From: Plasmodiophora brassicae
Taxonomy: Eukaryota
Direction: 5' to 3'
Assembly: GCA_036867785.1 (NCBI GenBank)
Contig: CP145414.1
Span: 124,001 to 188,000 of the forward strand
DNA length: 64,000 nt
Below are positions 17,147 through 44,200 of the stretch, one piece after another (the first letter of the stretch is position 1; every line of letters begins with the position of its first letter). A model generated the notes under the pieces. It saw only the letters and a program-made list of their open reading frames with translations, searched no databases and was not told where the DNA came from. Made by a program: the position numbers and the translations under genes.

Positions 17147-19839
17147 TCACATGCGGTTGACGGTTCGGATGCCGAGCAGGCTGAGGCCGGTCTTGATGAC
17201 GGCGCCGACGGCGACGATGAACTCGACGCGCGTGACGCGCAGGTCGGCGGTGGGCGCGTCCATGACCGGCGACCGCTCGTACCAGGCGTTGAAGTCCTTG
17301 GACAGGTCGAACAGGAACTTGCAGAGCACGAACGGCTTGTAGTCGTAGGCGGCCTTCTCCACCGTCGCCCAGAACGAGTTCAGCGAGTACAGCAGCGCAC
17401 GGTCGTACTCGGTGCCCAGAAGGCCCAGGTCGACGCGCCCGTCGCTGGGTGTGCCCACCTTCGCCAGGATCTGCTTGATGCGCGCGTACACGTAGCACAT
17501 GTACGGTCCTGCAGGGAACGATCAGCAGGCGGGCTGGATGACGAGGGCACGCGGCCCAACCAACCCGTATCGCCCGTCTTGGCGGTCCAATCCTTCAGGA
17601 TGAACGTGATGTCCTTGATCGGGTCCTGGTTCAGCATGCGATACTTGATCGTGGCCACCGAGATGGCGTGCTTCACTGCACAGCGAACGCATCAGCACAC
17701 GGCGCGCACAGCCACAGGCAGAGACGGGCCCGGCCACGTACCAGATTCAATCTCGTCGGACGACCAAATCTCACATTCCTTCTCGACGGTCGACCCGTCC
17801 TTCTTCGCCTGCAGGAAGAACCCGTCCTTGTACTTCTTCAGGTACGATTCCATGATCTCATCCGCCTGTGCAACCATTACCCCGATGCGAACAACGCGCC
17901 CGTTCCAGCGCGCCCCTACCAGTTGCTTCCTGAGTTCCGAGAAGTAGATGACAGTGCCATCCCGGGAGCTCATCTTGCCATGCTCACCAACGACCTGCCC
18001 GTACGCCAGGTGGAAGCACTTCTTGGCCTGCGGGTACCCCATGCGATCGAGGCAGGCGAACACCTGCTGGAAGTGGCAGCTCTGGGCGGCATCGACAACG
18101 TAGATGCTGCGGTCGATGTGGAATTCGTCAAACTTGCGACGCGCCAGCGCCAGATCCTTCGTGGCGTACAGGCCGGCCCCGTTCGACTTGATGAGGACCA
18201 GGAAGGGCAACGGCGGCTTGCACATGGACAGGTCACAGCCGATGGCGCCGTTCGTCTCCACCATGACGCTGCCGCCCTCCTTGCCGAGCTGGTAGTTCTC
18301 CATCACCATGGCCTTGCTGTCCTCGCTGACCTCCGACTCGAAGAAATCGTGGTCGAACCTCTGCACCACCGTCAGTGACGACCATCAAACGTATGCAGGT
18401 CGATGACGGACGGCGTCCAGCCAGGCGTAGATCGACTTGAACTCGTCCAGGCTCCACTTCTTGGTCGCGGCCCACAGCGCACACCATTCCGGGTCGCCCG
18501 ATTCCAACTTGAGCAGGACGTCGCCGACTTCCTTCTTCTGCTTCTTGTACGCCTCCTGGACCGATCCCGGGTGCTTCTTGTCCAGCTTGCCGATCTCGAT
18601 CAGGGCGTCGCCGGGCGAACACTCTTCCGCGATCAGCATGATCGCCTTGGCGTCGCCGCCCTGGCTGGCGCCCTGTGCCGCCTTCTTCTTCTGCTTGTTG
18701 CTCAGGCCGGCCTCGGGCGTCGCGTTCGCCGATTTGGGCGGCTGGGCGCCCAGCTCGGCGTACGCCAGCATGATGCCACTGGACTCCACGCCCATCATGT
18801 CCTTCGTCGCCACCGTCTGCTTCTTGAACCGCGTCCCGACTGGGATGTACGCCACCATGTCACCAACCTAACCCAGCCGTCAGACACGGGGCAGGATCTC
18901 GTCACCCAATCACCACAAACCGTGTATCCAGTGCCGCCGCAGACAACGGTCGCCGTTCGTCCTTCGCCGTACTCGACCTGGCAAACGTGCCAGTTCTTTG
19001 GGGCGTTCGGTGCAGGGTGCGCATCGATGGATACGACGCGGGCGGCGACGACGCCATCGTACGGGTATTTGGTGAGCTGGCTCAGGTCGAGCATGTCGTT
19101 GGCTTCGGCGTAGAGCAGGCCGAGGTACTCGCCCTTGCGATCGTCGGGCACGTTCAGGCCGTCCAGGTCGCACCCGCGTTCGTCCATGCGCTGCTTCAGC
19201 AGCCACAGGCACTTGGCGACATGGGCGCCCTCGTCGCCAAAGTAGTTGGCGGCGACGACCTTGTGCCCCATATGCTCCCACAGACGGACCAGCGAATCGC
19301 CCAGTGCCACGTTGCGCATGTGACCCACATGGAACGCCTTGTGCGTGTTCGGCTGCGAATACTCAATCATGACCTGGCGAACGTCGTCGTCGTTAGGGGC
19401 GACAGCTTCATGGGCACCCAATGCTAAGCACCTTCTCCTTGTTGCCGACAGGCTGCGCGTCCAGGTACCCTTCGTGGTTGATGGCGTGGACGACGGACGC
19501 GAAGAAGGCGGTGCGCAGCGTGACGTTCAGGGTCGGGCCCTGCACGACAATGGATTCGAAGATGGTGGACAGCGCGTCATCAGGCGACGTGATCCGCTCC
19601 GAGAGCAGCGACGCGAGTTCGGTGGCGATCTGGGCGGGCGGGCGCCCGCCGACCAATTTGCAGAGCGAGGCGCACGGGAACGCGAGTTCGCCTTGGCCGC
19701 GGCCGCGCGGCCGCTGCGTGCATTTCCTCAGCGTCGCCATGGCGTCGTCCGGTATCTCGGCCTGCAGCGACGTCACGCACGCTGACGCAATTGCCGCAAG
19801 CAGCGCCTCGCGCGCCTCGTCGATCACGTTCCTCGTCAT
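17147..19839 (-). CDS. RARS: Arginyl-tRNA synthetase with inserted tRNA-binding OB-fold, multi-exon
   Basis: IEYSQPNTHKAFHVGHMRN (HIGH), KSNGAGLYATKDLA, KMSSRDG (KMSKS), GDTG-PYMCYVYARI and the DALR-type end KTGLSLLGIRTVNRM. Confidence 0.95.
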
Positions 19840-20293
19840 GATGATGATGCCCGCTGCGTCTACGTACACGTTGCTCTGCGGAATCCGCCTGCCTACGCCT
19901 GCGCCGGTGCGTTCCGCTACGGAAGCCGCAGCGGCCGGCGCTGCCCTCCGTCGCGGACTTTCTATATCTAGACGCGGGCCACTTGTGGACTGCACCACAC
20001 ACGCGGCATTCGAGAGGCGGTCCACGTCGTGCCTGCCCGTAATTCACCTCGTCCTGGAACTTGATCTACCGCATCATCGTAGATCAGTTCACAGAGCTGT
20101 TCCTCTACGCCCTCCTGCTTGGGGTGATCAACGATTTGAGCCGATTCACGTCGTCCTGGGCAGTACACATGAAGAGTCGAGTACGTAACGCAACTACGTT
20201 GCAATGTGATCAGGTCTCCAGATGCGGTGTGGGGGTGTAATGCGATACCCCTCTGTCGACAACTGGGTGGGTCTGCACGTGATCGGGCTCAGC

Positions 20294-23005
20294 CTAAGGT
20301 TTCGCCGTGAAGGACACCGGCTTCATGGACAGGGCGCCGCCGGTGCGCGACTCGCCGCCAGCCGTGCTGGTCTTCACGCTGACCGTCTTGGTCTCCATGA
20401 CCATCTTGATCTGCGTGGGTGTCATGGTCGCGATCAGGTAGAACTTGTAGCTGAACAGGGTGCCCAGCGTGCACAGCACGATGACGGCGACGGCCACGGC
20501 ACGAACGACCAGCTGGACGCTCGGGTTATCCTTCAACAGCAGGAGAACGGGAAGGATCAGGACCTATCATGGAGGGCCCGGGGTTCAGAATTGTTCCCAC
20601 ATGCGCATGGCCCCGTCCATTATGGTCCGGCCCGGTTACCAGTGCAAGGAAGATGTTGTACGCGCACATGCACCTGTTCGAGCAACGGAGTCAGTGCCCG
20701 CGACGTGTTGCCAGCGGACTCGGCAATCTGCGACCGACATGTATTTCGTCTCGTTGAACATGAGCATGGGGATGTCCCGCGAGCGGTACGCCATGGCAGT
20801 GCCGGCGACGATGATGGCAAAGTGGATGGCGGCGACCAGCCAGAATCCCGCTGGCGCGTACTGGCAGCTGTAGACGAAGTCCAGGTCGGCGCCACAGGGG
20901 CACCCGGACACTCGGAACACCCTCTGGACGGTCGCCATGGCGCTGATCGTGTCCTGGCCGGCCATCCAGGCGCCGATGGCGATGGCGTCCACGGCGACCA
21001 GCAAAGCGAGGCGCTTGAAGACTTCGGCGTTGGTGATCGTCACGGTCCGCATGACGCCGCTGGCGCCCGACGCTGCCGCGAAGATCTGGGCCACCCTGTG
21101 CTGCTTGACGTACAGCGCGCCCTGTGTGTCAACCGGGGCGTGAGAAGGTGCCATTCGCGGGAGACGTCACGCCCTCGACGTCAGCATGTACCATCATGGT
21201 GATGAAGCCGATGCAGGTCAGCCAGACGGTGGCCCAGCAGCCGCTGGGGAACAGGTTCGGCTTCAGGGTCGCCGTCACGTTCGACGCCAGGAACACGACG
21301 GCGCCGATGCAGATGGTGATGCAGAAGATGGGCGATGCGCTCCTGATGACGGGATTGTCCTTGTTGTAGATGAAGGCGGGGATCAGGGCCAGGGCAACGA
21401 CCATGGCGAGGCCCGTCACCGAGTACGCTGTGGCGAATGCCCACGGTGCGGTGAGCAACTCGTTCAGGCAGCGATCGGGCAGCAGCGACCGGTCGTGCAG
21501 CAACAGGACCAGCTGGCACTCGATCGTGTTCAGCGCGTCTTGCGGCGACACGCGGCCCATCAGCGCCTGCAGGCGGACATGACCGCTCAGCACGAGGTGG
21601 CGCTACGTGGCTCGCGACGTACCTGCTGGATGTTCGTGAAGACGATGCGGGAGGCGTTCCCGTAGTGTTGAGGGGCCGTCGGCGCGCTGAACCTGTCGGC
21701 ACGAGCGCGTCAAGCTGGGACGACGTGCGAGCACACGCGTCGTGATTACCGGAACACGGAATAGTCATCGGTGATGTTCGTGTCGCACACCTGCCAGTGG
21801 TTGGGGTCGTAGGGTCCACACAGGCGCTTGCCGCAGTAGATCGACGTCCTGGACGGCGCCAACCCGAACAGGCGGTACCGGCGCGTCTGCTCTTGGACGG
21901 ACAGCATGGTCGTCAGCGTCGACGCCGCCTGCTGCGGGCGACTCGAGTACTTGGAGATGCCCAGGTAGGCGCTGCCGGCCGTCCCCTTCGATCGTGTCCC
22001 GGGGCCGTCGTTCGGCAGCATGGCAATGCCATAGGTCGCCGCGGTGACGTCGTCGCCTGGGAAGTTCTGCAGGCCCCACTGGCGGGTGAACGCGGCGCCG
22101 CCCGCCTCGAACAGCGCCTTGGACCCGTCCGCGTCCCAGGACGTCACCTGGTAGGGGCTGATGCCGCCGACCCATCGCACCGCACGCGCCAGCGCTTTCA
22201 CCGCTTTCGGGTTGTTGATCGACACCTGACAGGGGACGGCCGCCACGTCAACGTCCATGCAGCAGGCGAAGCGACATCTGGCGGGGCGATTACCCTGCCG
22301 TCGGGTTCGATGATGTTGCCGCCGCCATGCGAGCTGATCAGTTCGAGAATGTTGCAGGTCAGGCTTTCGTCCAGGGCGTCCCAGGCGTAACCGTAGAACT
22401 GCGGATTGGTCTGCCGTTCGCCCTCCTGGATCGTACGCGACATCTCCTCGAGCTCGTCCCAGGTCTGGGGCGGCGCCGCGTACCCGTACTTGGCCAGCAG
22501 GGCCTTGTTGTAGATCAGGAACGCGTTCTGGATGTCCCACGGTAGAGCGATGAGCCTGCCCTTGTACCAGCCGGCCTCGAGCCCGTCCGGATGGAACTGC
22601 TGTACGAAATCGGCGGGCAGGAGCTCAGTCAGGTCGGCCATGTGCTCGGCAAAGTCGGCCACCCAGATCGTGTCCATGTACGCAATCTGCCCGACACGAA
22701 TGTCAATTGCTTCCGAACGTTCCGGGCAGGGGCGGCCACCACTGCAGGTTCGTTACGTCGACGGCGCCCCGCTTCTGGATCTCGGCGTACTCTGCCGAGT
22801 ACGTGTCGCTCCAGGTCTCCAGGCCGATCGTGCTGTCCACACTGATCTGCACGTCGGGCACCAGGGACGAGATGTGGTCGGCGTACGCCTGCAGGCCGGC
22901 ACTGTCGGTGGCGTTGTCGGCCGTGGCCGTCAGGAACGTCAGCGTATCCGCTGCTGTGGCCCACCGCACGAGGGCCGGCCCGATAAGCAGAGCGACGACG
23001 AGCAT
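20294..23005 (-). CDS. Class C (7tm_3) GPCR with N-terminal ABC-type sugar-binding protein domain, paralog 1, multi-exon
   Basis: Signal peptide. SBP motifs LIALPW...LIYNKALLAKYGYAAPPQTWDELEEM, ESLTCN, GGGNIIEPDG|VSINNPKAVKAL. 7TM motifs PVIRSASPIF, LYVKQHRVAQIF and FNETKYM. Confidence 0.88.
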
Positions 23006-23296
23006 GGCGCCGAGCACGGTGACGGAACCGCCGTTCGATTATCAGCGGAACGCCCTGGCAAGCGATCCTGTGACCCGCAGGCTGGGTACGTGCCCATGAC
23101 CCGTGCGCTCCATCGGCAGTTACAGGACGACCAGGGGGCGATGACGATCACGTACGATTAGCGGCTGAACCTCTGCCCGTACCGAGCATTCCAGGCCGGT
23201 CGATTGTCGGCACAAGGCAGGCGGCTTGGCTTGCGACTGTATTGGTCGACCGGGCAGCACGGTTGATCAGGGCGTGTAGGCGTACGTGCAGGGCCC

Positions 23297-24343
23297 CTAC
23301 GCGGCTCTTGCCGTTCGGTGTCGAAACACGGACGGCAGGTTCGCCAGGTAGCAACTCTGCTGCACGTGCCGGCGCGCATTGTCCACGAGCTCGAGGGCGT
23401 CCTCGTACCGCTCCTGCAGGAGCGCGAGGTGAACCACCAGCACCTTCAGCAGGTCCAGGTTCGCGCGCGCTGCCGCTAGGTCTGCGTCAACGGCGGCCAT
23501 GTTGATCATCGTGGGCAACGTCGGCAGGCGCCGGCGCGCGTCTGCCAGTATATCAGTGGTCGCTAACATCCGACGCCTGGACAGGATCATGGCCTGCGAA
23601 AACAATTCGTGGATGATGACGCGATCGGCGCCCATCTGTACGAGCATGGTCCTGGTCGCCGCAATCTGTCGAAGGCTGATCGTCATGGCGTCGGCCAGGT
23701 CGCCCATGGACACGCGCGTCACGTTCCAGAAGCGGCGCGCGGGCAGGTGGACAAAGGTCCTATCGCGTATGGCGAAGATGTTGGGGCGATGCCCGACCGG
23801 CCGCTGGATGCGAAGGACGGACATGAGCCGACGCGTCAGGGCGGCAGCGCCACGATTCCAGGCGAAATTCCGGAGAACGCATCCGGTGGCGTTGGCGGTC
23901 CGGCGGATCAGCGTCTCCATCACCTGGACCGACTGCTGGTACGACGCCAGGCACATGGACAACCCGCGCTCGAAGTTGCCGAAGACGGACTCGAAACCGG
24001 GCGGATCCGCATCATGGCGTGCGGGCGATGTCGTCGTGTCGGGCGCGTCGGATGGCAGGCGAATATGTAATGGGTCACCAAAGAAGATGCTGCCGGCACT
24101 GACGATGAGGCGTTCCGCTTCGCGCAGCAACAATCGTGCGTCCTCCAAATGCACAATCGCTTCGGCTACGTGGACTCGAGTCTCAGCTGGTCCGTCGACG
24201 TCGCGCCTGTGAACGCACAACCCCTGCTGAGTCGTGCCCCGTCGTTTGCCAGAGTAGACCCGCACACGGTACCTAACATTGGTGGCGTCACCGACAACGA
24301 CCAGCACGCCTATCGCGACGATGCTGCGCAGCAACCGCCCCAT
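23297..24343 (-). CDS. Secreted helical hypothetical protein, paralog A (66-nt intron 24207-24272)
   Basis: Leader MGRLLRSIVAIGVLVVVGDA. Colinear homology with 24827-25923, including the intron position. Confidence 0.75.
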   Translation of the reverse strand: MGRLLRSIVAIGVLVVVGDATNVRYRVRVYSGKRRGTTQQGLCVHRRDVDGPAETRVHVAEAIVHLEDARLLLREAERLIVSAGSIFFGDPLHIRLPSDAPDTTTSPARHDADPPGFESVFGNFERGLSMCLASYQQSVQVMETLIRRTANATGCVLRNFAWNRGAAALTRRLMSVLRIQRPVGHRPNIFAIRDRTFVHLPARRFWNVTRVSMGDLADAMTISLRQIAATRTMLVQMGADRVIIHELFSQAMILSRRRMLATTDILADARRRLPTLPTMINMAAVDADLAAARANLDLLKVLVVHLALLQERYEDALELVDNARRHVQQSCYLANLPSVFRHRTARAA

Positions 24344-24826
24344 TGGTCTGGCCAGCGTCGGGCAACGAGCCAAAATGCCGCACGGTGGAACAACTGTGCG
24401 ACTTCCCCGAGCCGCGGCTGTACGGTCGCCCGAAATAGCGGCGGCGATTTTGCCGCAAATCACTGGACGCCAACCACCTCGTTGATCCTTGCAGAGTGAA
24501 GCGCTTCTGTATGTGGTAGGGCTGTCATCGGTTCGAGAGCGTCGTCCAACCAGTAGCCCAACGGGCCTCTGGTGTAGAGGACCTTCGTGCGCAAACATTC
24601 ATGCCCGACGCTCCCATAGGTTTGTACACAATTAGGATGGTTACAGGCACATCGCGAGCCCGTTGTGTTCATCGTATGTGGCCCGCGGCTACTAGCGCGG
24701 CATACGACTACAGTACTGAATACCATACGCATTCCAATGGTCCATCTGAAATCAGCAATGTAGCGATCCAGCAGATGATGATGCCGACGGTTAATTGATC
24801 ACTGGGACAATCGAGTTGGCTCGGCG

Positions 24827-25923
24827 CTAGGCCGCTCTTGCTGTGTCGGTTTGGAGCAGCAGGTGCAGATTAGTCTGGTAGCGACTCTGATGCAGATAAA
24901 TGACGGCGTTGTCCAGGTGCTTGAGGGCGGCCTTGTATCGTTCCTTCATGTGAGTGACCCGATCGACCAGTAGCTCAAACTGATGAGCACTGGCGCGAAC
25001 AGACGCAATGTCCTTCTCGACGACCGGTATATTTTCGCCGGATAGCGTCGACGTCAACTGCCCCAGCAGGTTCACCAACAACGTCATGCTCGTTATCAGA
25101 CGGCGCTTGGATAGCGCCAGAGCCTCGTAAAACAGGTCCATCACGACAACGCGGTCGGCATTCATTTGTATCACCATTGACCTTGTCGCCGCAATCTGAC
25201 CCCGGGTCACAGTTATCGCATTGACAAGGTCCTCGACGGGCACTTGAGTCACATTCCAGAAGCGTCGCACGGGCAGGTCGACAAAGTTCGCATCGCGCAT
25301 GGCGAATATGTTTGGCGGGCGGTGAGAGTCGACGGTCCGGGTCCTTACTGTGCCGGTGCGCATGATGGATGCAAGCCGGTCCACCAAGACGACAGTGGAA
25401 TTGCGTCGAACTGTGGCCCCGCGGTTTGGGCTACCGCATTGGATATGATTGTCGATCGTTGAAAAGATGCAGCAGATCAGCCTCTCCAAAGTGTCAACCG
25501 ACGTCAGGTGCGACAGCAGACCGGTAACCAGGCCTCGCTCGAATGTGCGGAAGACGGCTTCGAACGTGGGCGGGTTTGCATAGGGGCATACCGACGGTGA
25601 TCGCGTGCTTTCGCCCGTACCGGAGGGTCGGCGAATCTGACGTAGAGTATGCCCAGGAAAGGACCTCGCCATATCCGTAATGATGCGTTCAGCTGTGGAC
25701 AGTGATGATCGCGCTTCCTCTAAGCGCACGATCGCGTCCGATACATGCGTCCGATTGTCGGCAGGACCTTCATTTGGTCTGGGATCGTCCAGCCTGGCAT
25801 AATCCACTGGTCAGGTCCGCTCGTATGACGATACTGATAACGCTACCTGTCAGCATTGCACTGGGCAGCGCCACAGACGACAGCCAGCAGGCCAACCGCG
25901 ATCACACTCCTCAAGCGCCTCAT
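24827..25923 (-). CDS. Secreted helical hypothetical protein, paralog B (53-nt intron 25794-25846)
   Basis: Leader MRRLRSVIAVGLLAVVCGAAQC. Splicing joins it to LDDPRPNEGP. Shares PNIFAxRD..FVxLPxRRFWNVT and the terminal TARAA with paralog A. Confidence 0.75.
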
Positions 25924-26458
25924 TTGGCCAGTGAAGCACGGCGCCGGAAAGTGCGGGGAGAACTGCGTGCCTGCGGCAGCAGTCGCAAGCTCGCAGCGCA
26001 AGTGCGCGACTGCGCTCCCACCGGGAATAGCAGCTAGCCCACCTGCCCGATGCCCCGATCCGATCAGCCACACGCGTACGGCGAGTAGGTGGCATTGCTC
26101 CTGGTGTTGAGTTTCTGGGACGTGCCTTTCTTTGCCGGTCAAACGTATACGTAACGGGCGCACCGCGACAGCTGGCCGCTACTTCGCCTTCTGTCGGGAC
26201 CCCTCAACAAGAGGTCGAGGCGTTTGTGCATGCGGTCCCACGCCTGCAGATACGTCTGACGAACGAGTTGTTAGTTATTCCCGTTCTAGGCGGCGATCGT
26301 CGACGTCTCATCAGAGGGCACCGATGACTGAGGTGGTACACAGCGGCAGTTCTATGAGGTGTGGGAGTGGACGAACCATTCCGTGGTAAAGAACGTTGCG
26401 ACGAGTTCGCGCTGGGGGCAATCTCGGAATCTACGATGCGTTTCCCTCGATGGTCCAT

Positions 26459-29176
26459 TTATTTCGTGGTGGTCGATAACCCAGGCTTGCTGGCGGTGGA
26501 TAATCCTCGTTTCGTCGAGATGGCGTCGAAGGTGGGGCGAACCTTGACGCTGGCCGGGGATCTCGAATCCATGACAACTTTGAGCTCGGCGGGCGTCATG
26601 GTTGCGATCAGGTAGAACTTGTAGCTGAACAGTGTACCCAGCGTGCACAACACGATGACGACGACGGCAACAGAGCGAGCAACCAGTTGGATACTCGGGT
26701 TATCAGTCAGCAACAGAAGCACGGGCAGAATCAGGACCTATTCGCCATTCCGTCAGACCCATATACGTTACGCTGAAGGTTCGTCGCTGGACCAATGCGA
26801 GGAAGATGTTGTACGCGCACATGCACCTGTTCGACAAAGTGATGTTAGCGCCCCGCAAAGTACTCGGGGACCGGCCATCGATCATCTGGACCGACATGTA
26901 TTTCGTCTCGTTGTACATGAGCATGGGGATGTCGCGGGAACGGAACGCCATGATGGTACCCGCAATGACGATGGCAAAGTTGAAGGCGGCGACCAGCCAG
27001 AATCCCGTCGGCGAGTACCGGCAGCTGTAGACGTAATCGAGGTCAGCGCCACAAGGGCACCCTGACTCTCGGAACACTTTCTGCACAATCGCCATGCCGG
27101 TAACCGTTTCCTGGGAAAACATCCAAGCCCCGATGGCAATCGCTTCCAGCCCAACAAGTACTGAGAGGCGCTTGAAGACATCGGCATTGGTGATGGTCAC
27201 GGCCCGCATGGCGCCGTTTGCGCCTGATACCGCCGCAAAGATCTGGGCCACCCTGTGCTGCTTGACGTACAGTGCACCCTGTATGAAGTTGGGGTCGTTA
27301 CGCGACGGGTACCAAGGCATCGGTCACAACATGTGCGATACCATCATGATGATGAAGCCAATGCAGGTCAGCCCAGCATTTGCCCAGCAGATGCCCCGGA
27401 ACAGATTCGGCTTCAGGGTCGCCGTCAGGTTCGACGCCAGGAATATGACGGCGCCAATGCAGATGGTGATACAGAAGATGGGCGACGCGCTCCTGATGAC
27501 AGGGTTGTCCTTGTTGTAGATGAAGGCGGGGATCAGGGCCAGCGATATGGCTACGGCGAGACCCGTCACCGAGTACGCCGTTGCATACGCCCAAGGCTCG
27601 GTGCGCAACTCGTTCAGGCAGCGATCGGGCAGCAGCGACCGGCCGTGCAGCAACAGGACCAGCTGACATTCGATCGTGTTCAGCGCGTCTTGCGGCGATA
27701 TCTCGTACGTCAATGCCTATGGGAGCAGCAGGTGGACTCGTTACTCGCAGCAATGATGGCTCCAGTGGAAATAACCGCACCCGATGAACATTCGTGAAGA
27801 CAATACGAGAGGCGTCGTCGTAGTGGCCAGGGGCCGTTGCGTCTGTAAACCTTTGGGCAAGCGCGGGTCACACACAAGCTCCGGGGGCCTGGTCGATGTT
27901 CAATTGAGATTACCGGAACACGGAATAGTCGTCGGTGATATTCGCATCGCAGATCTGCCAGTGGTTGGGGTCGTAGGGCGCACACAAGCCTTTCCCGCAG
28001 TAGATCGACGTTCGGGACGGCGCCAACCCGAACAGGCGGTACTCGCGTACCTGCTCTTGGTCGGACAGCATGGCCATCAGCACGGCCGCTGCTTCCTGGG
28101 AGCGATTGGAGTACTTGGAGATGCCCAGGTAGTCGTTACCGGCCGTCCCCTTCGATCGCGTCCCGTGGCCGTCGTTCGGCAGCATGGCAATGCCATAGGT
28201 CGCTGCAGTGACGTCGTCCGTCGGGAAATTCATCATTCCCCATTGGCGGGTGAACGCCGCGCCGCCGGCCAGGAACACGGCTATCGACCCGTCTTCGTCC
28301 CAGGACATCACCTGGTCCGTGCTGATGTTCCCAATCCAATGTACCGCCCGCGTCAGTGCTTTCAGCGCGTGCGGGTTGTTGATCGACACCTGATGATGGG
28401 CCCACATTGCATCCGTCAGCCACGTCCGAGACCGACTCGCTGATCGCGCGTGGGCGGTTACCCGGCCATCGGGTTCGATGATGTTCCCGCCGCCATGGGA
28501 GCTGATCAGCTCCAGGAGGTTGCAGGTCAGGCCTTCGTTCAGGGCGTCCCAGGCATAGCCGTAGAACTGTGTGTTGTTCTGCCGTTCGCCCTCCTGGATC
28601 GTACGCGACATCTCCTCGAGCTCGTCCCAGGTCTGGGGCGGCGCCCCGTACCCGTACTTGGCCAGCAGGACCTTGTTGTAGATCAGGAACGCGTTCTGGA
28701 TGTCCCACGGTAGAGCGACGAGGCGGTCGTTGTACCACCCACCCTGCAAGCTGTCGGGATGGAACTGCTGTATGAAATCGACGGGCAGGTGCTCGGTCAG
28801 GTCGGCCAGGTGGTTGGAGAACTCGGCCACCCAGGTCGTGTCCAGCCACGTTACCTGTGGTAGGAACCAGCGCGCTCGTGAGACAATGCATATCGGGGGT
28901 CGCGTCCCACGCGAGCTGTCTTACGTCGACGACGCCCGGCTTGCGAATTTCGGCATACTGCGCCCAGAACGTGTCGCTCCAGGTGGCCAGACCGATCGTG
29001 CTGTCGACATTGATCTTGACGCCAGGCACGAGCCCGGCGATCCGGTCGGCGTACGCCTGTGCGCCGGCGCTGTCGCTTGCGTTCTCGGCTGTCGCCGTCA
29101 TGAACGTCAGCGCGTCGAGCGCGCCACAGGACGACACCAGCGCCGCAGCGACGATGACCACAGCCGCATCCAGCAT
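26459..29176 (-). CDS. Class C GPCR with sugar-binding protein ectodomain, paralog 2, multi-exon
   Basis: Exon-by-exon homology to 20294-23005 (EGLTCN, PPQTWDELEEM, PVIRSASPIF, YNETKYM); introns are diverged. Confidence 0.88.
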
Positions 29177-29877
29177 GACGACGGTCCGCCTGCCGGGGTG
29201 AACCTGGCGCTGGTCAGTTAACGACCGTTCACGCCTATGACTCGCAGGAACACGTATGTAGGCGCCCTCGTAGGGCCCTGGTCATTCGCGGTGGTACGGG
29301 AAGTCATTTCTACCGAGGCACCGAGCGCACAGTCACAGGAAGTGTCCACCACCGCGCGTGCTTCAGTGCCTGGGGCGCTGGCAGCAATGCACACCACCGA
29401 CTGCCGAAGGGACACGTGCAGTACCGGCGCTGCACCGGTCACGGTCGAGCTGGGTGCATCACAGGCTATCCAAGCCTGCCGAGTGTTCTTCGGAACGGTG
29501 GCGCGGTACAGCATATGCACAGTCACCATCTGCAGCACTCCCTGCAGGGCGGCGCCTTTGTTCTAGAGTCCTGCCCGCAGGGTTCGCGAATGCTGGCGGG
29601 TACGTCATACCCTGTACGGCTGCAGTGGCACCATGCGGGGTCTGGTTGTTGAATGCGGCTGAAGATATTATCGATGACCTGACGTCGAGATATTGACACG
29701 GCCTGCTCATTATCATCATGGGCGCGGACGTTCTGCCATGGTGCCCGCCGCCTGGCGACGTCGCTACCGACGACGACGACGACAGGGCAGCGTCGTGGTT
29801 CCATGCGATGGAGAGCGGGGCGCGACGGTATCTACTACCGTGATGCCTGCTGGTCGCGTGCCCATCCATGTCCTTAC

Positions 29878-30698
29878 ATGTCGTCGGTCAGGAGGCGACG
29901 CTCTGTCCTGGCGCTGACCGGCCTGCCCGATGACATCATGTCGTTGGTGTTCGAGCACCTAGAAGGACGCGACCTAGCCCGGATCATGTCGACCTGCCGT
30001 GCCTGGCACGCGCTGTCCACCCGCGTCTACTCGCCTCTCTGGCGGACGCTGTACGTGCACCAGTTCAGCGACGAGTGCCGAGTCGACGTGTTCGACGCGC
30101 GGGACAATGCCAAATGGAGGAACTCGTACCGGCAGAACTGGTGGAAACGTTCGTGGACCGAGATCAAGGCGGCCCGCCAGCAGCAGGACGGTGACCTGCT
30201 GCGGTCCCAGCAGCAGGCGCCGACCAGCATGTCCACGGTCGCGTTCCTGCGCATCATCTTCGTCTGCGGCCTGTCGTCGTTCGTCCTCGTCAACGTCCTC
30301 ATGAACCTGTGGAACATGCAGATGATCGTCGGATGGCACTCGTTCTTTCTCCTGTACGTACGGGCGAGGCGCGCCGCGTGCCAACGCCTCTGACCCCGCA
30401 CAGGTTGCTCTGGCTCATCATGTGCATTGTGCTGATCGCCGCGAGCCGCATCGACGTGACGACGTCGTGGACGCATCTGCTGATGTTCGGCGGGTGCAGC
30501 ACAACGCTGTGCTCCGTCCTGCTGTTCTTCCTGCGGTCGATCCTCGGCCCGGCCATACCCGCGTACATCGTCCTGATCCCCGTCATCAGCTGCGGCGCGT
30601 TCGGCCTCGCCATGATCGCCAGCACGGTCGCCTTCTGCAGAACGCCCTTCGTCCCCGCCTCGTTCCGCGGGTCCCGGGCATGGCTCCTAGAGATATAA
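29878..30698 (+). CDS. F-box protein with C-terminal multipass membrane region (intron 30354-30403)
   Basis: F-box LTGLPDDIMSLVFEHLEGRDLARIMSTCRAW...LWRTLY followed by about four hydrophobic helices. Confidence 0.85.
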
Positions 30699-37863: not shown

Positions 37864-38251
37864 CAGTCGTGCGAACCTGGGATGGGCGGGCGCGTGCCAC
37901 CATTAGATTAGATTCCCTGCGGCGGCGTCGAGCAAGCCCAGGGCGTCAACCGGGCCGGGCACATCGGTTGACCTGCACCGGATGCGATCACCGTTAACGC
38001 TCAGGAGGCCTGGCAGGAGCGCATGCGTTCACCCAGCATTGTTGGCATCTGGCGCGCGCAGCCTGGGCGTACGTGTGCGGATCCCCAGACGCTTGCGGCG
38101 GCCCTGGTACGCGGGCGCTTCCCGCGCTCGATGTAACATGAACGCTTAGGGCTGCCTGCCCGATGTCGGGCGGCAGGCAGGCCGCGCGCGCTGACCGTCT
38201 GACGTCCGGCCAGCGGCAGCAGGCAGCCATACACACAACGGGGCCACGACT

Positions 38252-41200
38252 ATGGCGTCGCCTGCCGATGCTGGCGCCGCTGGCCGCCCACGCTGCTGCT
38301 TGCGGCGGCTGCTGCCGCTCCTGCTTGTATACTACGTGATGTTGATGGGGGCGCAGGCCGCGGCGCCCAAGCCGAAGCCGACGCCGGCCCCGACACCGGC
38401 GCCGACACCTGCGCCGACACCGGTGCCCGCGCCGACCCCGAGCCCCTACGATTGCACAACGCACTGCGACACGCTGACGTCGGACGGCGCCTTCAACTCG
38501 TACTGCAGCACGACGGCGACCGGGTACGTGGTCGGCGGCAAGAGCGGGCAGACGGTGCCGTACAACGGCGTCAGCTTCCCGTGGAACCCCTGCTCCGTCG
38601 AGCGGTACGCCGCCTGCACGTGCGGCGCCTACTGCCAGGTGTTCGGCGACTGCTGCCCCACGTTCTACAGCGAGTGCCTGTACCCGTCGCTGTCGACCTG
38701 GCAGCCGAACGTCGGCCTGGCGACGAGCGGCCAGCAGACGGTCGTCGTCACCGGCAAGTACCTGACGATCTACCTGCCGAACGGGACGACGGTCGCGCCC
38801 GTCTTCGCCTGCAACGGCCAGCGGCTGACCGGGGCGGTGCGCACGGCCACGACGCCGTTCAACTCGTACGCGACGTACCCGAACGCGCCGACCGGGCCGC
38901 CCGGCCTCGTCGAGATGAGCGGCCTGGAGACGTGGCAGCTGACGATGCCGGCGACGGCGGGCGGGTCGTCCGTGTCCTGCTCGGTGACGAACCCGTTCGT
39001 GGCGGCGAAACCCGCCCTGCAGACCGTGTCGTACGCGGCGCCGGTCATCACGTCGACCGTGCCGGCGCTGATGCCGACGGCCCCGGCCAGCGTCGTCGTC
39101 AACGGCCAGTACTTTGGCACGTCGCCCTCCGCCAGCATCAACGGCGTGCCGGTGACGCCGACCGCATCGGGCGACGCGCAGCTGACGCTGGCGTGGCCGG
39201 GCGGGACGGGCGTCCAGATCCCGATCACGGTGCGGGCCGCCGACCAGTCCAACACGTTCTACGTCAGCTGCGCGCCGCCGACCGTCACGGGCGTGTCGCC
39301 GGCGCACGGGCCCACCGACGGCGGCGGCACCGTCGTCGTCACCGGCACGAACCTCGGCAGCGATCCGGCGCTGATCAGCGTCCAGTTCGGCGCGTACGGC
39401 GCCTGCACGAACCTGCAGGTCGTGTCGGCGCACACGGCCGTGTCGTGCGCCGTGCCGCCGGGCCTGTCCCTGCAGACGATCACGGTGACGGTCGGCGGGC
39501 AGACGTCGACGTCGGGCGGCGCCGGCGTCACCTACCAGTACGACGCGCCGACCGTCGCCCGGGTCGTATCGGTGGCCACCGGCCTGACGACGCTGCCGAC
39601 GGTCGGCGGCCTGATCCAGGTGACGGGCACGAACTTCGGGCCGGGCGGCGCGGCGCCGCAGGTCCTCGTTCAGTTCGGGGCGCAGGCCTGCACGAACGTG
39701 ACGGTGACGGCGCCCAACACGGTCCTGCAGTGCACGATCGGCCCGTTCGAGGGGACCGCCTCGCTCGTCGTCCAGGTCGCCATGCTGTCGAGCGCGGCGT
39801 TCACCGTGGCGGCGACGGCGCCGACCGTGACGAGCGTGTCGCCCAGCGCGGGCCTGTCGACGGCGCCCGGCAACGCCACGCTGACCGTGCTGGGCGCCAA
39901 CTTTGGCCTGACCGGCGCCGTCTACCTGACGCAGACGCTCGGGCAGGCGGGCGTGCCGTGCGCGTCCACCCGCCCCCTGCCCTGGTCGCCGACCCACGAC
40001 CAGGTGCGGTGCACGTCGCCCGGCGCCCAGGGCACCGCCTGGATCGTGTACGTGGCCACGGTCGGCGGCGCCACGTCCAACCAGGACCGGACCGTGTCGT
40101 TCGCGGCGCCCGTCCTGACGGCGGTGGCCCCGACGACGTCGCCGACCGAGGGCGGCGCCGTCGTCGTCCTGACCGGGTCGGCGCTGGGCACGACGGGCAC
40201 CGCCCTGGTCGGCGCGACGCCCTGCACGGCCACGACGTTCGCCCAGACGACGGGGACCTGCACGACGCCGCCGCTGGTGCTGCCGGGGCCGTCGACGTCG
40301 CTGGGCGTGTCGGTGCGCGAGACGGCCCCGTTCGCGTACAGGGCGTCGACGCTGGCGAACGCGCTGTCCTACCTGGGCCCGTCGGTGCTGTCCGTGTCGC
40401 CGGCGGCGATCGCGACCGGCAGCGCCAACCAGGTCGTCACGATCCGCGGGTCCAGCTTTGGCAACCTGCCCGGCACGGTCTACTTCGCCGGGTCGCACGC
40501 CTACTGCCAGCTGGGCGGCTGGTCGCACACGGTCATCACCTGCACGACGCCGCCCATCAACGGCACCGACGCCGCCTTCGTCGTCACGTCCTACGACGGC
40601 AAGGCGGTGTCGGCGCCCAACGCGCTGACGCTGGCGGCGCCGTCGATCACGGCCGTGTCCAGCGCGCCCTCGCCCATGCCGACGACGACGGGGACGGGGA
40701 CGCGCGTCACCATCCAGGGCGCCAGCTTCGGGTCGGCCGGCAACGTGTCCATCGGGGGGCAGGCCTGCGCCCCGATCGTCTCCTGGGCGCACACGCAGGT
40801 CGTCTGCCAGCCGGCGTCGGGCGCCGGCGCCAACCTCGACCTGGTCGTCTGGCGCACGTCGACGCGGCCGCCGGCCCTCGTCCGCCTGTCCAACGCGATC
40901 GGGTACGCCGCCCCGGGCATCGTGGCGGTCGTCGGCACCGGCGGCGCGCCCGCCGCCTGCGACACGGCCGGCACCGCCGTCCTCACCGTCCAGGGCACGA
41001 ACCTGGGCGTGTCCGGGGCGACGCCCGTCCAGGTCAACGTCGGGTCGAACGCGTCCCTGCTGCTGCCGGCCAGCTGGGTCGGCGCCGCCCAGGTCGCGTT
41101 CACCTGCCCGCCCGGGTACCTGGACACGCAGGTCGCCCTGGTCGTCGCCGGGCAGTGGTCGCCGGCCGTCCCCCTGGCGTACCAGGCGCCGACGGTGGCG

Positions 41201-44200
41201 GCCGCGTCCCCGACCCTGCTCAACACGACGGGCGGCACACGGCTCCTGCTGACCGGGACGAACTTTGGGACGGCGGCGGCCACCGTTGCCGTCGCCGTCG
41301 GGTCGGCGCCCTGCTCCCCGATCGTGGCGCGCACGCAGACGACGCTGACGTGTGTGGCGCCGGCCGGGTCGGGCGCCGCCGTCCCCGTCATCGTCACCGT
41401 GGGGACGCGCTCGTCCGACGGCCGGTTCACCGTCGGGTACCTGGGCCCGTCGATCGCGTCGATCGCGCCGACGCCCGGCCTCGGGTTCCCGACGACGGGC
41501 GGCGTCCCGGTGACGGTGGTCGGCGCCAACTTTGGCGCGTCCGCCCAGGTCCAGGTGGCGTCGGCGCCCTGCCCGGCGCTGACGTCGCCGGCCCCGACCT
41601 CGACCCGGATCGTCTGCACGCTGCCGCCCGGGCAGGGCGCCCAGGTCCAGGTGTCCGTCTCGACCGGGTCGCAGACCAGCCCCGCCTACCTGTTCGCGTA
41701 CGACGCGCCCGTCGTCCACGCCGCCTACACGGGGCCGGCGCAGGCGAACTCGACCGCCGGCGGGTACGCGCTCACGATCGCCGGCGCCAACTTTGGGGCG
41801 GCGGGCCTGGCCGCCGCCGCCATCGCCGGCGCCGCCTGCCCGACGCAGACGGGCGGCCAGACGCGCCTGCTCTGCACGGTGCCCGCCGGCCAGGGCGCGT
41901 CCCTGCCCGTCGTCGTGACCGTCGCCGGTCAGACGTCGAACGTCAACGTCCTGTTCTCGTACGCCGCGCCCGTCATCCAGTCCGTCCTGGTCAACGGCGT
42001 CGCCGGCGCGCCCGTCCCGACGCAGGGGAACGCGCGCCTGACCCTGCTGGGCACGTCATTCGGCACGGCGTCGACGGTGACGTTCAACGGCGCGCCCTGC
42101 ACGCTCTGGCCGGGCACGCAGCAGCACACGACGGTGCAGTGTGTGCCGGGGGCCGGCGTCGGCGCCGCCCTGCCCCTGACGCTGACGGCCGGGACGCAGT
42201 CGGCCACGACGCTCCTGTCGTACCAGGCGCCGACGGTCGCCTCGGTGTCGCCGCCGACCGGCCCCACCCAGGGCGGCACGCTGCTGACGATCACGGGCGC
42301 CGACTTTGGCCCCGCCGGCGTCGTCCTCGTCGGCGGGCAGACGTGCGCGCCCGCCGGCACCGGCCAGCAGTGGACCTCGATCGAGTGCCTGACGCCGGCC
42401 GGCGTCGGCGCCGCCCTGTCCGTCGTCGTGGTCGCCGGCGGCGTCCCGTCGTCGCCGGGCGCCCCGTTCTCGTACGGCGCCCCGGCGATCCAGGTGCCGC
42501 TGCTGACCGGGCCGCCCTTCACCGAGGCGACGCCCGGCAACCTGCTGTCGTTCGCCGGCGTCAACTTTGGCGACCCGGCGACGCCGCTGACGGTGACGAT
42601 CGGCGGGCGGGCCTGCCCCGTCGTGGCGCACACGCACACGCGCGTCAACTGTTCGGTGCCGACCGGGGCGGGCGCCGCCCTGCCCCTGCAGGTCCGCGTC
42701 GGCAACCAGGCGTCGCCGGTCGTCCCCTTCTCGTACGCCGCCCCGGTCGTCGCCCGCGTCCGCGGCTGCCCGGTGACGTCGGGGGCGGCCACCGCTGACT
42801 GCCCGGTGGCGGGCGGCACCACCATCACCGTCTACGGCAGCAACTTTGGGCCGGGGGCCACCGTCACCGTCGCCGGCCTGCCCTGCACGCCCGTCGCCTA
42901 CGCCTGGCCGGGCGCGCCGTCCACTGCCGCCAACCAGACGCTGTCCTGCCCGCTGGCGGCGACGCCGGCCGGCGGGTTCGGCGTCGACCTCGTCGTCAAC
43001 GTGAGCGGCCAGGTCGGCACGGCGCCCGCCCTGCTGTCGTTCGCCGGCCCCGCCCTCGTCCCCGGCACGCTCGTGTTGACGGACGCGCAGGGCCACCGGG
43101 TGGGCGATGCGCGCGCCCCGCCCGGCCCGTCGAAGGCCAACTGGACGACCGTGTCGCCGCCCGTCGTCCTCGCCCGGTTCAATTGCACGCACGCGTCCGC
43201 CCGGCCGCTGTCGGCGACGTTCGGCCCGGCCGCTGACCCGTCCCTGTTCGCCTGTGCGGCCACGAACGCGACCACGTCGGGCGCCGTCACCACCGTGTCC
43301 TGCCTGCTGCCCAGCGCGGTCGGTGCCGCCCTGCGCTTCGTCGTCCGCGCCGGCCTGCAGACGTCGCTGCCGGGCGCCGACACGCTGGCGTACCCGGCGC
43401 CCGTCCTGGTCAACGCGTCGCTGGGCCTGGGCGGCGGCGGCCCGCGCGGCAACGCCCTCCAGTCGGCGCAGACGTCCGGCGACGTGGTCGCGTTCCAGGC
43501 GCGGTTCGCCGGCGCGTCCGCCGCCCTGCTGCGCGTGACGCTGGGCGCGCCCGGCACCAACTACACGGACTACGCGTGCCTGTCGGTGCGGGCCGTGCTG
43601 GCCGCCCCCGACCTCTTGAACGTGACCTGCCGGACGCCGTCGGGCACGGGCGCCAGCATCGCCGACCTGCGCTTCGTGCTCTGGGCCCTGGACCAGGCGT
43701 CGCCGCCGAGCCCCTTCACGTACTCGTACCCGGTGCCGCCCGTCGTCTACGGCGTGGCCGGGTGCCCGGCGGCGCCCACGCCCAACTCGACGGCCAGCTG
43801 CGACACGGAGGGCGCCAACGTCCTCACCGTGTACGGCGACCACTTTGCCGCCGCCGACAGCGTCCTCGTGTCGTCGTTCGCCTGCGTCATGGCCACGTTC
43901 GTGTCGACGCAGCAGTTCACGTGCGCGTTGGCGCCCGGCGCCGGCCTCCTGCTCAACGTCGTCGTCCAGGCCGGCCTGCTCTACAGCAAGGCGGCCCCGC
44001 TCGTCTCGTACGCCGCCCCGGTCGTCGACGCCGTCGCCGGGTGCGTCCAGTCGTCGTCGTCGTCGTCGTCGTCGCTGTCGCCCTCGTCGACCTACAACTG
44101 CAGCCGGGCGGGCGGCGACCGCATCACGATCCTGGGCCGGTACATGGTGGCGCCGGCCACCGTCTACGTCGGCGGCCAGCTCTGCACGGGCGTCGTGCAC

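Follow-up and report, generated by a model that had tools for sequence, protein, structure and literature searches.

Paralogous genes of Plasmodiophora brassicae that join a carbohydrate-type substrate-binding domain to a class C seven-transmembrane domain

Two paralogous genes, here called A and B, on the minus strand of a 64,000-nt stretch of the Plasmodiophora brassicae genome (assembly GCA_036867785.1, contig CP145414.1, positions 124,001 to 188,000; hereafter the window, whose coordinates are used throughout) each encode a bacterial-type substrate-binding protein (SBP) domain followed by a class C seven-transmembrane (7TM) domain. In our judgement, they are likely to be paralogues arranged in tandem and belonging to a P. 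brassicae family of four class C (GABA-B-like) receptors, in which an SBP of the carbohydrate type (CUT1, alpha-glycoside/trehalose-maltose) serves as the sensor.

Clubroot is a major disease of Brassica, and since its agent can be neither cultured nor transformed, surface receptors with which it reads its host are hard to find; the four P. brassicae genes are plausible sensors of nutrients or host cues. Both the genes and their fusion architecture are already known. In the passages devoted to them, Rolfe et al. 2016 (BMC Genomics 17:272, PMC4815078) present the P. brassicae fusions as "novel transporters" ('SBP_bac_1-7tm3 putative transporters') and count four sugar-type SBP_bac_1 genes with homology to trehalose/maltose binders, two of them on scaffold PbPT3Sc00030. 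The same passages state that the transcripts are single coding regions where the e3 annotation had missed or split the genes, that most of the genes are expressed early in infection and in galls, that horizontal gene transfer is likely, and that such fusions exist in no other eukaryote. Organism, architecture, gene count and the placement of two genes on one scaffold all agree with the family of A and B, an agreement of description and not a sequence match to the published identifiers. Any novelty that an earlier reading of this DNA from its letters alone (the sequence-only reading) lent to the pair is therefore gone. What we add is modest: a correction of the transporter label, a correction of the claim of uniqueness, a full-length model of gene A, and a remodelled pocket in the tandem pair.

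Two eight-exon genes with shared intron positions

Exon models were built by script from coordinates only, on open reading frame (ORF) fragments and junction sequences. They give two eight-exon genes within 20294-29176, encoding 749 amino acids (aa; gene A) and 753 aa (gene B), with no internal stop in either; position 20294 is the last base of the gene A stop codon and 29176 the A of the gene B ATG. Each gene has 7 introns of 55-76 nt, all 14 of them GT..AG and lying at the same codon positions in A and B, and the two proteins share 565/753 residues. The end coordinates and motifs quoted in the sequence-only reading were all recovered exactly in these coordinate-only translations. They comprise GGGNIIEPDGRVSINNP, SASPIF, PQTWDEL and AFTRQW in the gene A/B translations, next to copy-specific motifs, namely FNETK, ESLTCN and WDADGSKALFEAG in gene A and YNETK, EGLTCN and WDEDGSIAVFLAG in gene B. 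The features are as follows (TM, transmembrane helix; CDS, coding sequence).

20294..23005, minus: gene A, whole CDS, 8 exons, 749 aa; predicted signal peptide, SBP_bac_1 ectodomain and 7tm_3; coordinate model
22757..23005, minus: gene A exon 1, aa 1-83; predicted signal peptide and SBP start
22294..22686, minus: gene A exon 2, aa 84-214; SBP lobe with PQTWDEL, ESLTCN and GGGNIIEPDGR
21750..22225, minus: gene A exon 3, aa 215-373; SBP, VSINNP to SVFR
21623..21692, minus: gene A exon 4, aa 373-396; SBP
21192..21566, minus: gene A exon 5, aa 397-521; final SBP helix, linker with Cys, and TM1-TM3
20739..21121, minus: gene A exon 6, aa 522-649; TM3 end to FNETKY
20640..20673, minus: gene A exon 7, aa 649-660; first part of TM6
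20294..20563, minus: gene A exon 8, aa 661-749 and stop; TM6 end, TM7 and C tail; model and intron 7 joint
26459..29176, minus: gene B, whole CDS, 8 exons, 753 aa, identical to P0001; model, deposited protein and spliced contigs
28925..29176, minus: gene B exon 1, aa 1-84; model and contigs
28462..28854, minus: gene B exon 2, aa 85-215; model and contigs
27914..28389, minus: gene B exon 3, aa 216-374; model and contigs
27781..27850, minus: gene B exon 4, aa 374-397; model and contigs
27342..27716, minus: gene B exon 5, aa 398-522; final helix of the SBP, linker and TM1-TM3; model, contigs, Pfam, alignment and AF2
26896..27278, minus: gene B exon 6, aa 523-650; model, contigs and Pfam
26793..26826, minus: gene B exon 7, aa 650-661; model and contigs
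26459..26737, minus: gene B exon 8, aa 662-753 and stop; model and contigs

The gene B model equals, letter for letter, the deposited protein P0001 ('G-protein coupled receptors family 3 profile domain-containing protein [Plasmodiophora brassicae]'). The deposited counterpart of gene A, P0013 (PBRA_009075, 541 aa), matches the model over residues 1-521, then runs on into intron 5 and ends after TM3; the 749-aa version supplies the corrected full-length model that gene A requires. Two further paralogues, P0014 (750 aa, about 40% identical) and P0094 (PBRA_009112, 744 aa), lie elsewhere in the genome of P. brassicae.

The ectodomain is a type II binding protein of the carbohydrate class

Pfam was run on single exons and on whole proteins with its curated cut-offs (26 bits for SBP_bac_1, 33.5 bits for 7tm_3). 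SBP_bac_1 was found at residues 36-328 of P0001 (72.5 bits) and scored 87.1 bits in P0013, while the scan of proteins gave no match to ANF_receptor or Peripla_BP. The type I Venus flytrap denoted by these latter families, which is typical of animal class C members but not of the Pfam 7tm_3 family as such, is lacking in A and B. A Foldseek comparison against the PDB pointed in the same direction: the top 13 ranks were taken up by the Thermus thermophilus alpha-glycoside-binding protein family 6J9W/6JAL (10), MalE3 (6DTQ and 6DTR; 2) and TMBP (1), with TM scores normalised to the target of 0.82-0.86 for these 13 ranks, indicating a two-lobed type II fold. Pfam, the AF2 model and Foldseek together bear out the proposal of the sequence-only reading that a type II SBP stands here in place of a type I flytrap.

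Sequence comparison narrowed the family further. E-values were 3e-50 for the 6J9W family, 1e-37 for Thermotoga maritima MalE3 and 1e-31 for Thermococcus litoralis TMBP (1EU8), and the PDB titles of the 6J9W/6JAL family name trehalose, maltose or glucose as bound. Bacterial relatives of about 420 aa share 33-36% identity and carry the JGI name 'trehalose/maltose transport system substrate-binding protein'. NCBIfam returned no equivalog, only matches far below cut-off to MalE (28 bits vs 291) and NgcE. The earlier assignment to a ThuE/TMBP group holds insofar as E-values, Foldseek and JGI names all favour an SBP of the trehalose/maltose or alpha-glycoside kind; ThuE itself was named in no result.

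The Thermus 6J9W family, MalE3 (6DTQ) and TMBP (1EU8) have fold and family in common with A and B, at about 28-29% identity and with R356 kept. They differ in working for ABC importers as free proteins, either periplasmic or lipid-anchored, whereas A and B are fused to a 7TM and, unlike the Thermus, MalE3 and TMBP proteins, contain extra Cys residues and a Cys-containing stalk.

A group of metagenome proteins of about 900 aa (P0002-P0009) contains two tandem trehalose/maltose-type SBP domains each. They score 260-287 bits against a query of gene B exons 2-3, compared with about 190 bits for single-domain bacterial SBPs against full-length P0001, a difference due in part to the two SBP copies that they carry. 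In the SBP tree described below, their halves cluster with each other's kind, apart from P. brassicae.

The membrane part is a complete class C domain closest to GABA-B

In P0001, 7tm_3 (PF00003) spans residues 437-699 with 112.8 bits (E 2.9e-32), covering profile positions 5-246 of 251. P0014 and P0094 reach 104.9 and 130.7 bits, and single exons of gene A 37.4 and 47.3 bits. The full-length AF2 model (pLDDT 87.6, pTM 0.81) shows the SBP fold, a helix-stalk and seven long helices at residues 438-464, 476-496, 506-540, 553-580, 612-635, 646-670 and 675-707; an N-terminal hydrophobic helix at residues 2-21 is the basis of the predicted signal peptide. The order signal peptide, SBP and class C 7TM that the sequence-only reading had given for both genes is accordingly supported by Pfam matches above cut-off and by the AF2 helices, with the signal peptide being a prediction.

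The closest solved relatives of the 7TM are the GABA-B subunits (E 1.3e-12; 2.9e-14 with a profile), followed by mGlu2/4. Kept in the alignment to GABA-B2 are the TM3 Cys, a G-A-x-x-x-K-x-x-R-V-x-x-I-F stretch, the Cys of the second extracellular loop (ECL2) and N-E/D-S-K-Y before TM6; the same motifs are seen in the alignment to fly GABA-B1, and these columns are invariant between P0001 and P0014. We take the TM3-ECL2 cysteines, the TM3 K/R and the pre-TM6 N-E-x-K to be class C hallmarks. The Pfam scan of proteins gave no match to NCD3G, a domain which, according to the relevant passages of Krishnan et al. 2012 (PMC3251606), is likewise lacking in GABA-B and in all non-metazoan members. The GABA-B receptors (9JR0, 6W2X, 6UO8) are thus like A and B in their 7TM homology and in a short stalk without a cysteine-rich domain, but differ in their type I (ANF/LIVBP-like) flytrap, where A and B have a type II ectodomain, and in being obligate heterodimers. 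A prediction of an A-B ectodomain heterodimer scored 0.03 (mark 0.32), which is not evidence either way.

If A and B work as class C receptors, a small carbohydrate-like ligand would close the two SBP lobes, and lobe closure would pass through the short Cys-containing stalk, with no cysteine-rich domain in between, as in GABA-B, to the 7TM, which would signal to a G protein. Such proteins would sense and not transport.

A four-member family with a plausible bacterial source

An exhaustive profile search with the 7TM part returned 2842 proteins at E<=0.001. Among the best 150, five have an SBP_bac_1-type ectodomain: P0013, P0094, P0188 from the chytrid Fimicolochytrium jonesii, and metagenome P0181 and P0195. 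Our Pfam scan of ectodomains covered 51 proteins (50 of the best 150 plus P0243) and found SBP_bac_1 in 5, ANF_receptor in 7, Peripla_BP_6 alone in 4, Bmp in 3 and no recognised domain in 26; Peripla_BP_4, PBP_like_2 (P0109), LRR, Laminin_G/Pentaxin, Ephrin_rec_like+PH and Chlam_PMP occurred once each. ESM Atlas clusters combining SBP_bac_8/SBP_bac_1 with 7tm_3 were commonest in chytrids (151 members) and diatoms (57), which we regard as leads only.

Relationships were inspected in a quick IQ-TREE phylogeny of the SBP part (69 rows) and a FastTree phylogeny of the 7TM part (142 rows), both built without the Allomyces, gut-fungal and diatom sequences. All four ectodomains from P. brassicae fall into a single clade (SH-aLRT 99), within which A groups with B (100) and P0014 with P0094 (98), and in this one quick tree the clade is nested within bacterial trehalose/maltose-type SBPs. 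The ectodomain of chytrid P0188 is its sister (SH-aLRT 82, with a long-branch warning), while those of P0195 and P0243 fall into other, distant SBP groups. In the 7TM tree, the P. brassicae receptors cluster with P0095, a fragment from a metagenome (support 97), and the 7TM of the chytrid is placed in another part of the tree. Judging from these trees, there is good support for a single fusion that was followed by duplications in the P. brassicae lineage, and a bacterial source of the ectodomain is plausible. Since the 7TMs do not group and the SBP sister link carries a long-branch warning, the trees do not demonstrate a fusion event shared between P. brassicae and the chytrid.

The idea of a horizontally derived receptor pair in a protist survives in part: the nesting among bacterial SBPs makes a bacterial origin of the ectodomain plausible, but because the architecture also appears in a chytrid and in the Atlas clusters of chytrids and diatoms, the transfer need not be specific to this protist. 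The published record adds fungal cases. Krishnan et al. 2012 (PMC3251606) report SBP_bac_1 on eight Glutamate-family G-protein-coupled receptors (GPCRs) of Allomyces, and Seppälä et al. 2016 (PMC5168858) report class C GPCRs with sugar-type SBP type II ectodomains in anaerobic gut fungi, which confirms that SBP-GPCR fusions in early-diverging fungi had been described, as the sequence-only reading stated. These two papers and Rolfe et al. 2016 are all that our literature search for the SBP_bac_1 and 7tm_3 pairing found. As far as these texts and our own matches go, the fungal receptors (Allomyces macrogynus, anaerobic gut fungi, F. jonesii) combine 7tm_3 with a sugar-type SBP_bac_1 and lack NCD3G, as do A and B. 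The claim that such fusions occur in no other eukaryote, and are unique to P. brassicae, is wrong, as fungal and chytrid cases exist; the four genes belong with the SBP type II class C GPCRs of Allomyces, gut fungi and a chytrid, and the Atlas clusters suggest diatoms as well. The view of class C GPCR evolution set out by Krishnan et al. and Seppälä et al. is unchanged by this.

Outside the window, the P. brassicae protein PBRA_005806 (P0109 / P0249) joins a class C 7TM to two domains of the phosphate-binding type PBP_like_2. This protein corresponds to the 'phosphate transporter' class of Rolfe et al., which likewise should be re-read as a receptor class.

A remodelled pocket in A and B

For the pocket, we used the Thermus residues R49, D118, W287 and R356 that are named in PDB mutant titles, mapped by the printed alignment; its register was confirmed by the W287A and W287F chains, which show A and F at position 287. 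Columns are numbered by gene B and compared with a local alignment of 73 bacterial relatives.

D118, column 137: bacterial relatives D 48, N 19 of 73; A and B Q; P0014 N; P0094 D; chytrid P0188 D
W287, column 301: bacterial relatives M 24, W 18 of 73; gene A A, gene B D; P0014 W; P0094 W; P0188 W
R356, column 374: bacterial relatives R 72 of 73; A and B R; P0014 R; P0094 R; P0188 R
R49, column 67 (outside the printed alignment, assuming no gap): bacterial relatives R 35, Q 34 of 73; A and B S; P0014 F; P0094 M; P0188 F

The Asp and the Trp lost in A and B are both kept by P0094 and by chytrid P0188; P0014 keeps the Trp and has N for the Asp. Judged from these alignments, the pocket of A and B is remodelled compared to P0014 and P0094. 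The two copies also differ from each other at conserved SBP columns, namely 192 (S in A, G in B), 247 (A/E) and 301 (A/D); column 247 is Glu in 71/73 bacterial relatives, Ala in gene A and Glu in gene B. The earlier remark that the copies diverge around likely pocket residues was therefore reasonable.

Several observations weigh against carbohydrate-sensing receptors. Only 1/4 of the mutated Thermus residues is kept in A and B (R356, equal to R374), the other 3/4 being replaced, and all five eukaryotic fused forms have L or V in place of Trp 200, which 73/73 bacterial relatives share. With 3/4 of these Thermus contact residues replaced and Trp 200 lost, sugar binding by A and B is not assured. 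The 7TM is divergent as well: a word-based search with residues 425-715 matched only P0001 and P0013. Finally, the published interpretation, in the passages of Rolfe et al. 2016 (PMC4815078) quoted above, is that of transporters.

Given that key pocket positions are replaced, A and B probably do not bind their ligand in the manner of the Thermus protein and TMBP. The trehalose/maltose or 'host sugar' specificity put forward in the sequence-only reading loses its support with the same 3/4 replacements, and in view of the remodelled pocket, trehalose and maltose alone are too narrow a set of binding candidates. It is conceivable, though we think it unlikely, that A and B are receptors for something other than a host sugar, be it the organism's own trehalose in an autocrine or osmotic role, a soil or rhizosphere cue, or a non-carbohydrate accommodated after pocket remodelling. 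The replaced pocket positions fit such a ligand, and Rolfe et al. 2016 (PMC4815078) state that P. brassicae produces its own trehalose. The Trp at column 301 is retained in P0014 and P0094, and the Asp at column 137 in P0094, so the family may have split in specificity. Speaking for a carbohydrate after all, the framework of the carbohydrate SBP family is retained in A and B at residues E191, L193, T194, C195, E199, G205, G207, G257, F261 and R374.

A far more speculative scenario, to which we attach little probability, is that the tandem pair, with its Asp and Trp lost and its copies diverged at columns 192, 247 and 301, has been retuned away from trehalose/maltose and, perhaps as a heterodimer like GABA-B or T1R, senses a host-specific glycoside of root exudates. 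If true, the germination of spores, the chemotaxis of zoospores or the growth of plasmodia in Brassicaceae would be under the control of this glycoside.

Receptors or transporters

The published label implies that A and B are solute transporters, in which a sugar such as trehalose, maltose or an oligosaccharide would be captured by the SBP and then moved through the membrane by the seven helices. Bacterial relatives of the ectodomain do serve ABC importers, and P. brassicae is obliged to take carbon from its host, as stated in a passage of Rolfe et al. 2016 (PMC4815078). The membrane part speaks against this role, being a nearly end-to-end match to 7tm_3 whose solved relatives (GABA-B, mGlu) are all GPCRs, and neither Pfam nor NCBIfam matched an ABC permease or any other transporter family on the proteins. 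We know of no 7tm_3 protein that transports. In addition, the Trp at column 200 is lost in all fused forms, although a role for it in permease docking is a guess. We therefore regard a transport function as improbable: a sensor is the better reading, the published 'transporter' label is probably wrong, and it probably misdirects work on the four genes.

One spliced mRNA for SBP and 7TM of gene B

Contigs of four public runs were compared with window positions 20100-29400; the RNA label of these runs is a guess by the tool, none being recorded as RNA. In three RNA-like runs from three studies, the gene B introns were spliced out in 7/7 (X1), 7/7 (X2) and 6/7 (X12) cases, with CT..AC ends on the plus strand, in contrast with the DNA-like run X15 (0/7 skipped). 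Record 20 of X2 and record 9 of X12 span SBP and 7TM exons with the introns removed. In a count of sequence words, of 20 runs holding gene B words, 19 contained a share of 0.74-0.77 and X15 0.96, and 0.74-0.77 is, by our own arithmetic, what is expected when all intron and junction words are missing (456 plus about 210 of 2718). Gene B exon 5 itself carries both SBP homology (the Thermus protein alignment runs to residue 420) and 7tm_3 (from 437). Since one exon encodes the last SBP helix together with TM1-3, the fusion is not an annotation artefact, and the SBP and 7TM of gene B are part of a single spliced mRNA.

Coverage of gene A in the four runs is thin. The intron 7 joint (20561->20638) was seen in X12 only, loose contig ends at 20737, 20677 and 21748 fit introns 6 and 3, and the contigs contained no joints for introns 1, 2, 4 and 5 at this coverage; intron 5 is the one read through by P0013. 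Comparison of A with B gives dN/dS values of 0.34 for the SBP and 0.19 for the 7TM, and both copies are therefore constrained by purifying selection.

We give practically no credence to SBP and 7TM being separate genes, an assembly or annotation artefact or bacterial contamination: the older deposited gene A model P0013 ends after TM3 and, according to Rolfe et al. 2016 (PMC4815078), the e3 annotation missed or split these genes, but both parts share one exon in both genes, spliced contigs cross the boundary in three studies, and each gene has seven spliceosomal-type introns, four of them in the SBP part, at positions conserved between A and B. For gene B, separate transcription of the two parts, the outcome that the sequence-only reading had named as fatal to its proposal, is ruled out by exon 5 and the spliced contigs, which likewise refute an artefact for this gene.

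Two side observations come from the same contigs. At 20414-20468, inside the last exon of gene A, 53 nt with GT..AG ends on the plus strand are missing from one contig of X2 (depth 4.5), which may reflect an antisense or overlapping transcript or a contig artefact. RNA-like contigs of gene B extend kilobases past 29400 (X2 record 20 is 5887 nt long), which fits a compact genome with abutting transcripts.

Neighbouring genes

Among the flanks tested (an arginyl-tRNA synthetase fragment, an F-box gene and two unknown ORFs), there was no ABC permease, the rest of the window not having been scanned for permeases. The synthetase fragment, a catalytic domain (tRNA-synt_1d, E 7e-17), lies at 18795-19526 on the minus strand, downstream of gene A; the F-box protein is encoded at 29683-30393 on the plus strand, upstream of gene B and opposite to it. 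Between A and B are two minus-strand ORFs, 23297-24598 (433 aa) and 24827-25810 (327 aa), which are mutually paralogous (e.g., RFWNVT...) and matched no Pfam family. With the minus-strand order being gene B, the 327-aa ORF, the 433-aa ORF and gene A, the locus is not a simple two-gene tandem unit.

Further along the window, at 38195-45469 on the plus strand, a 2424-aa open frame encodes 13 IPT/TIG domains (E 1e-129) and, after them, cysteine-rich repeats of Ephrin_rec_like / NCD3G-like kind. It lies within the stretch from 38 to 50 kb, which has 72-79% G+C, with 51-nt tandem repeats at 46359-46596, and this extreme G+C accounts for open frames of >1000 aa in the other frames of the stretch.

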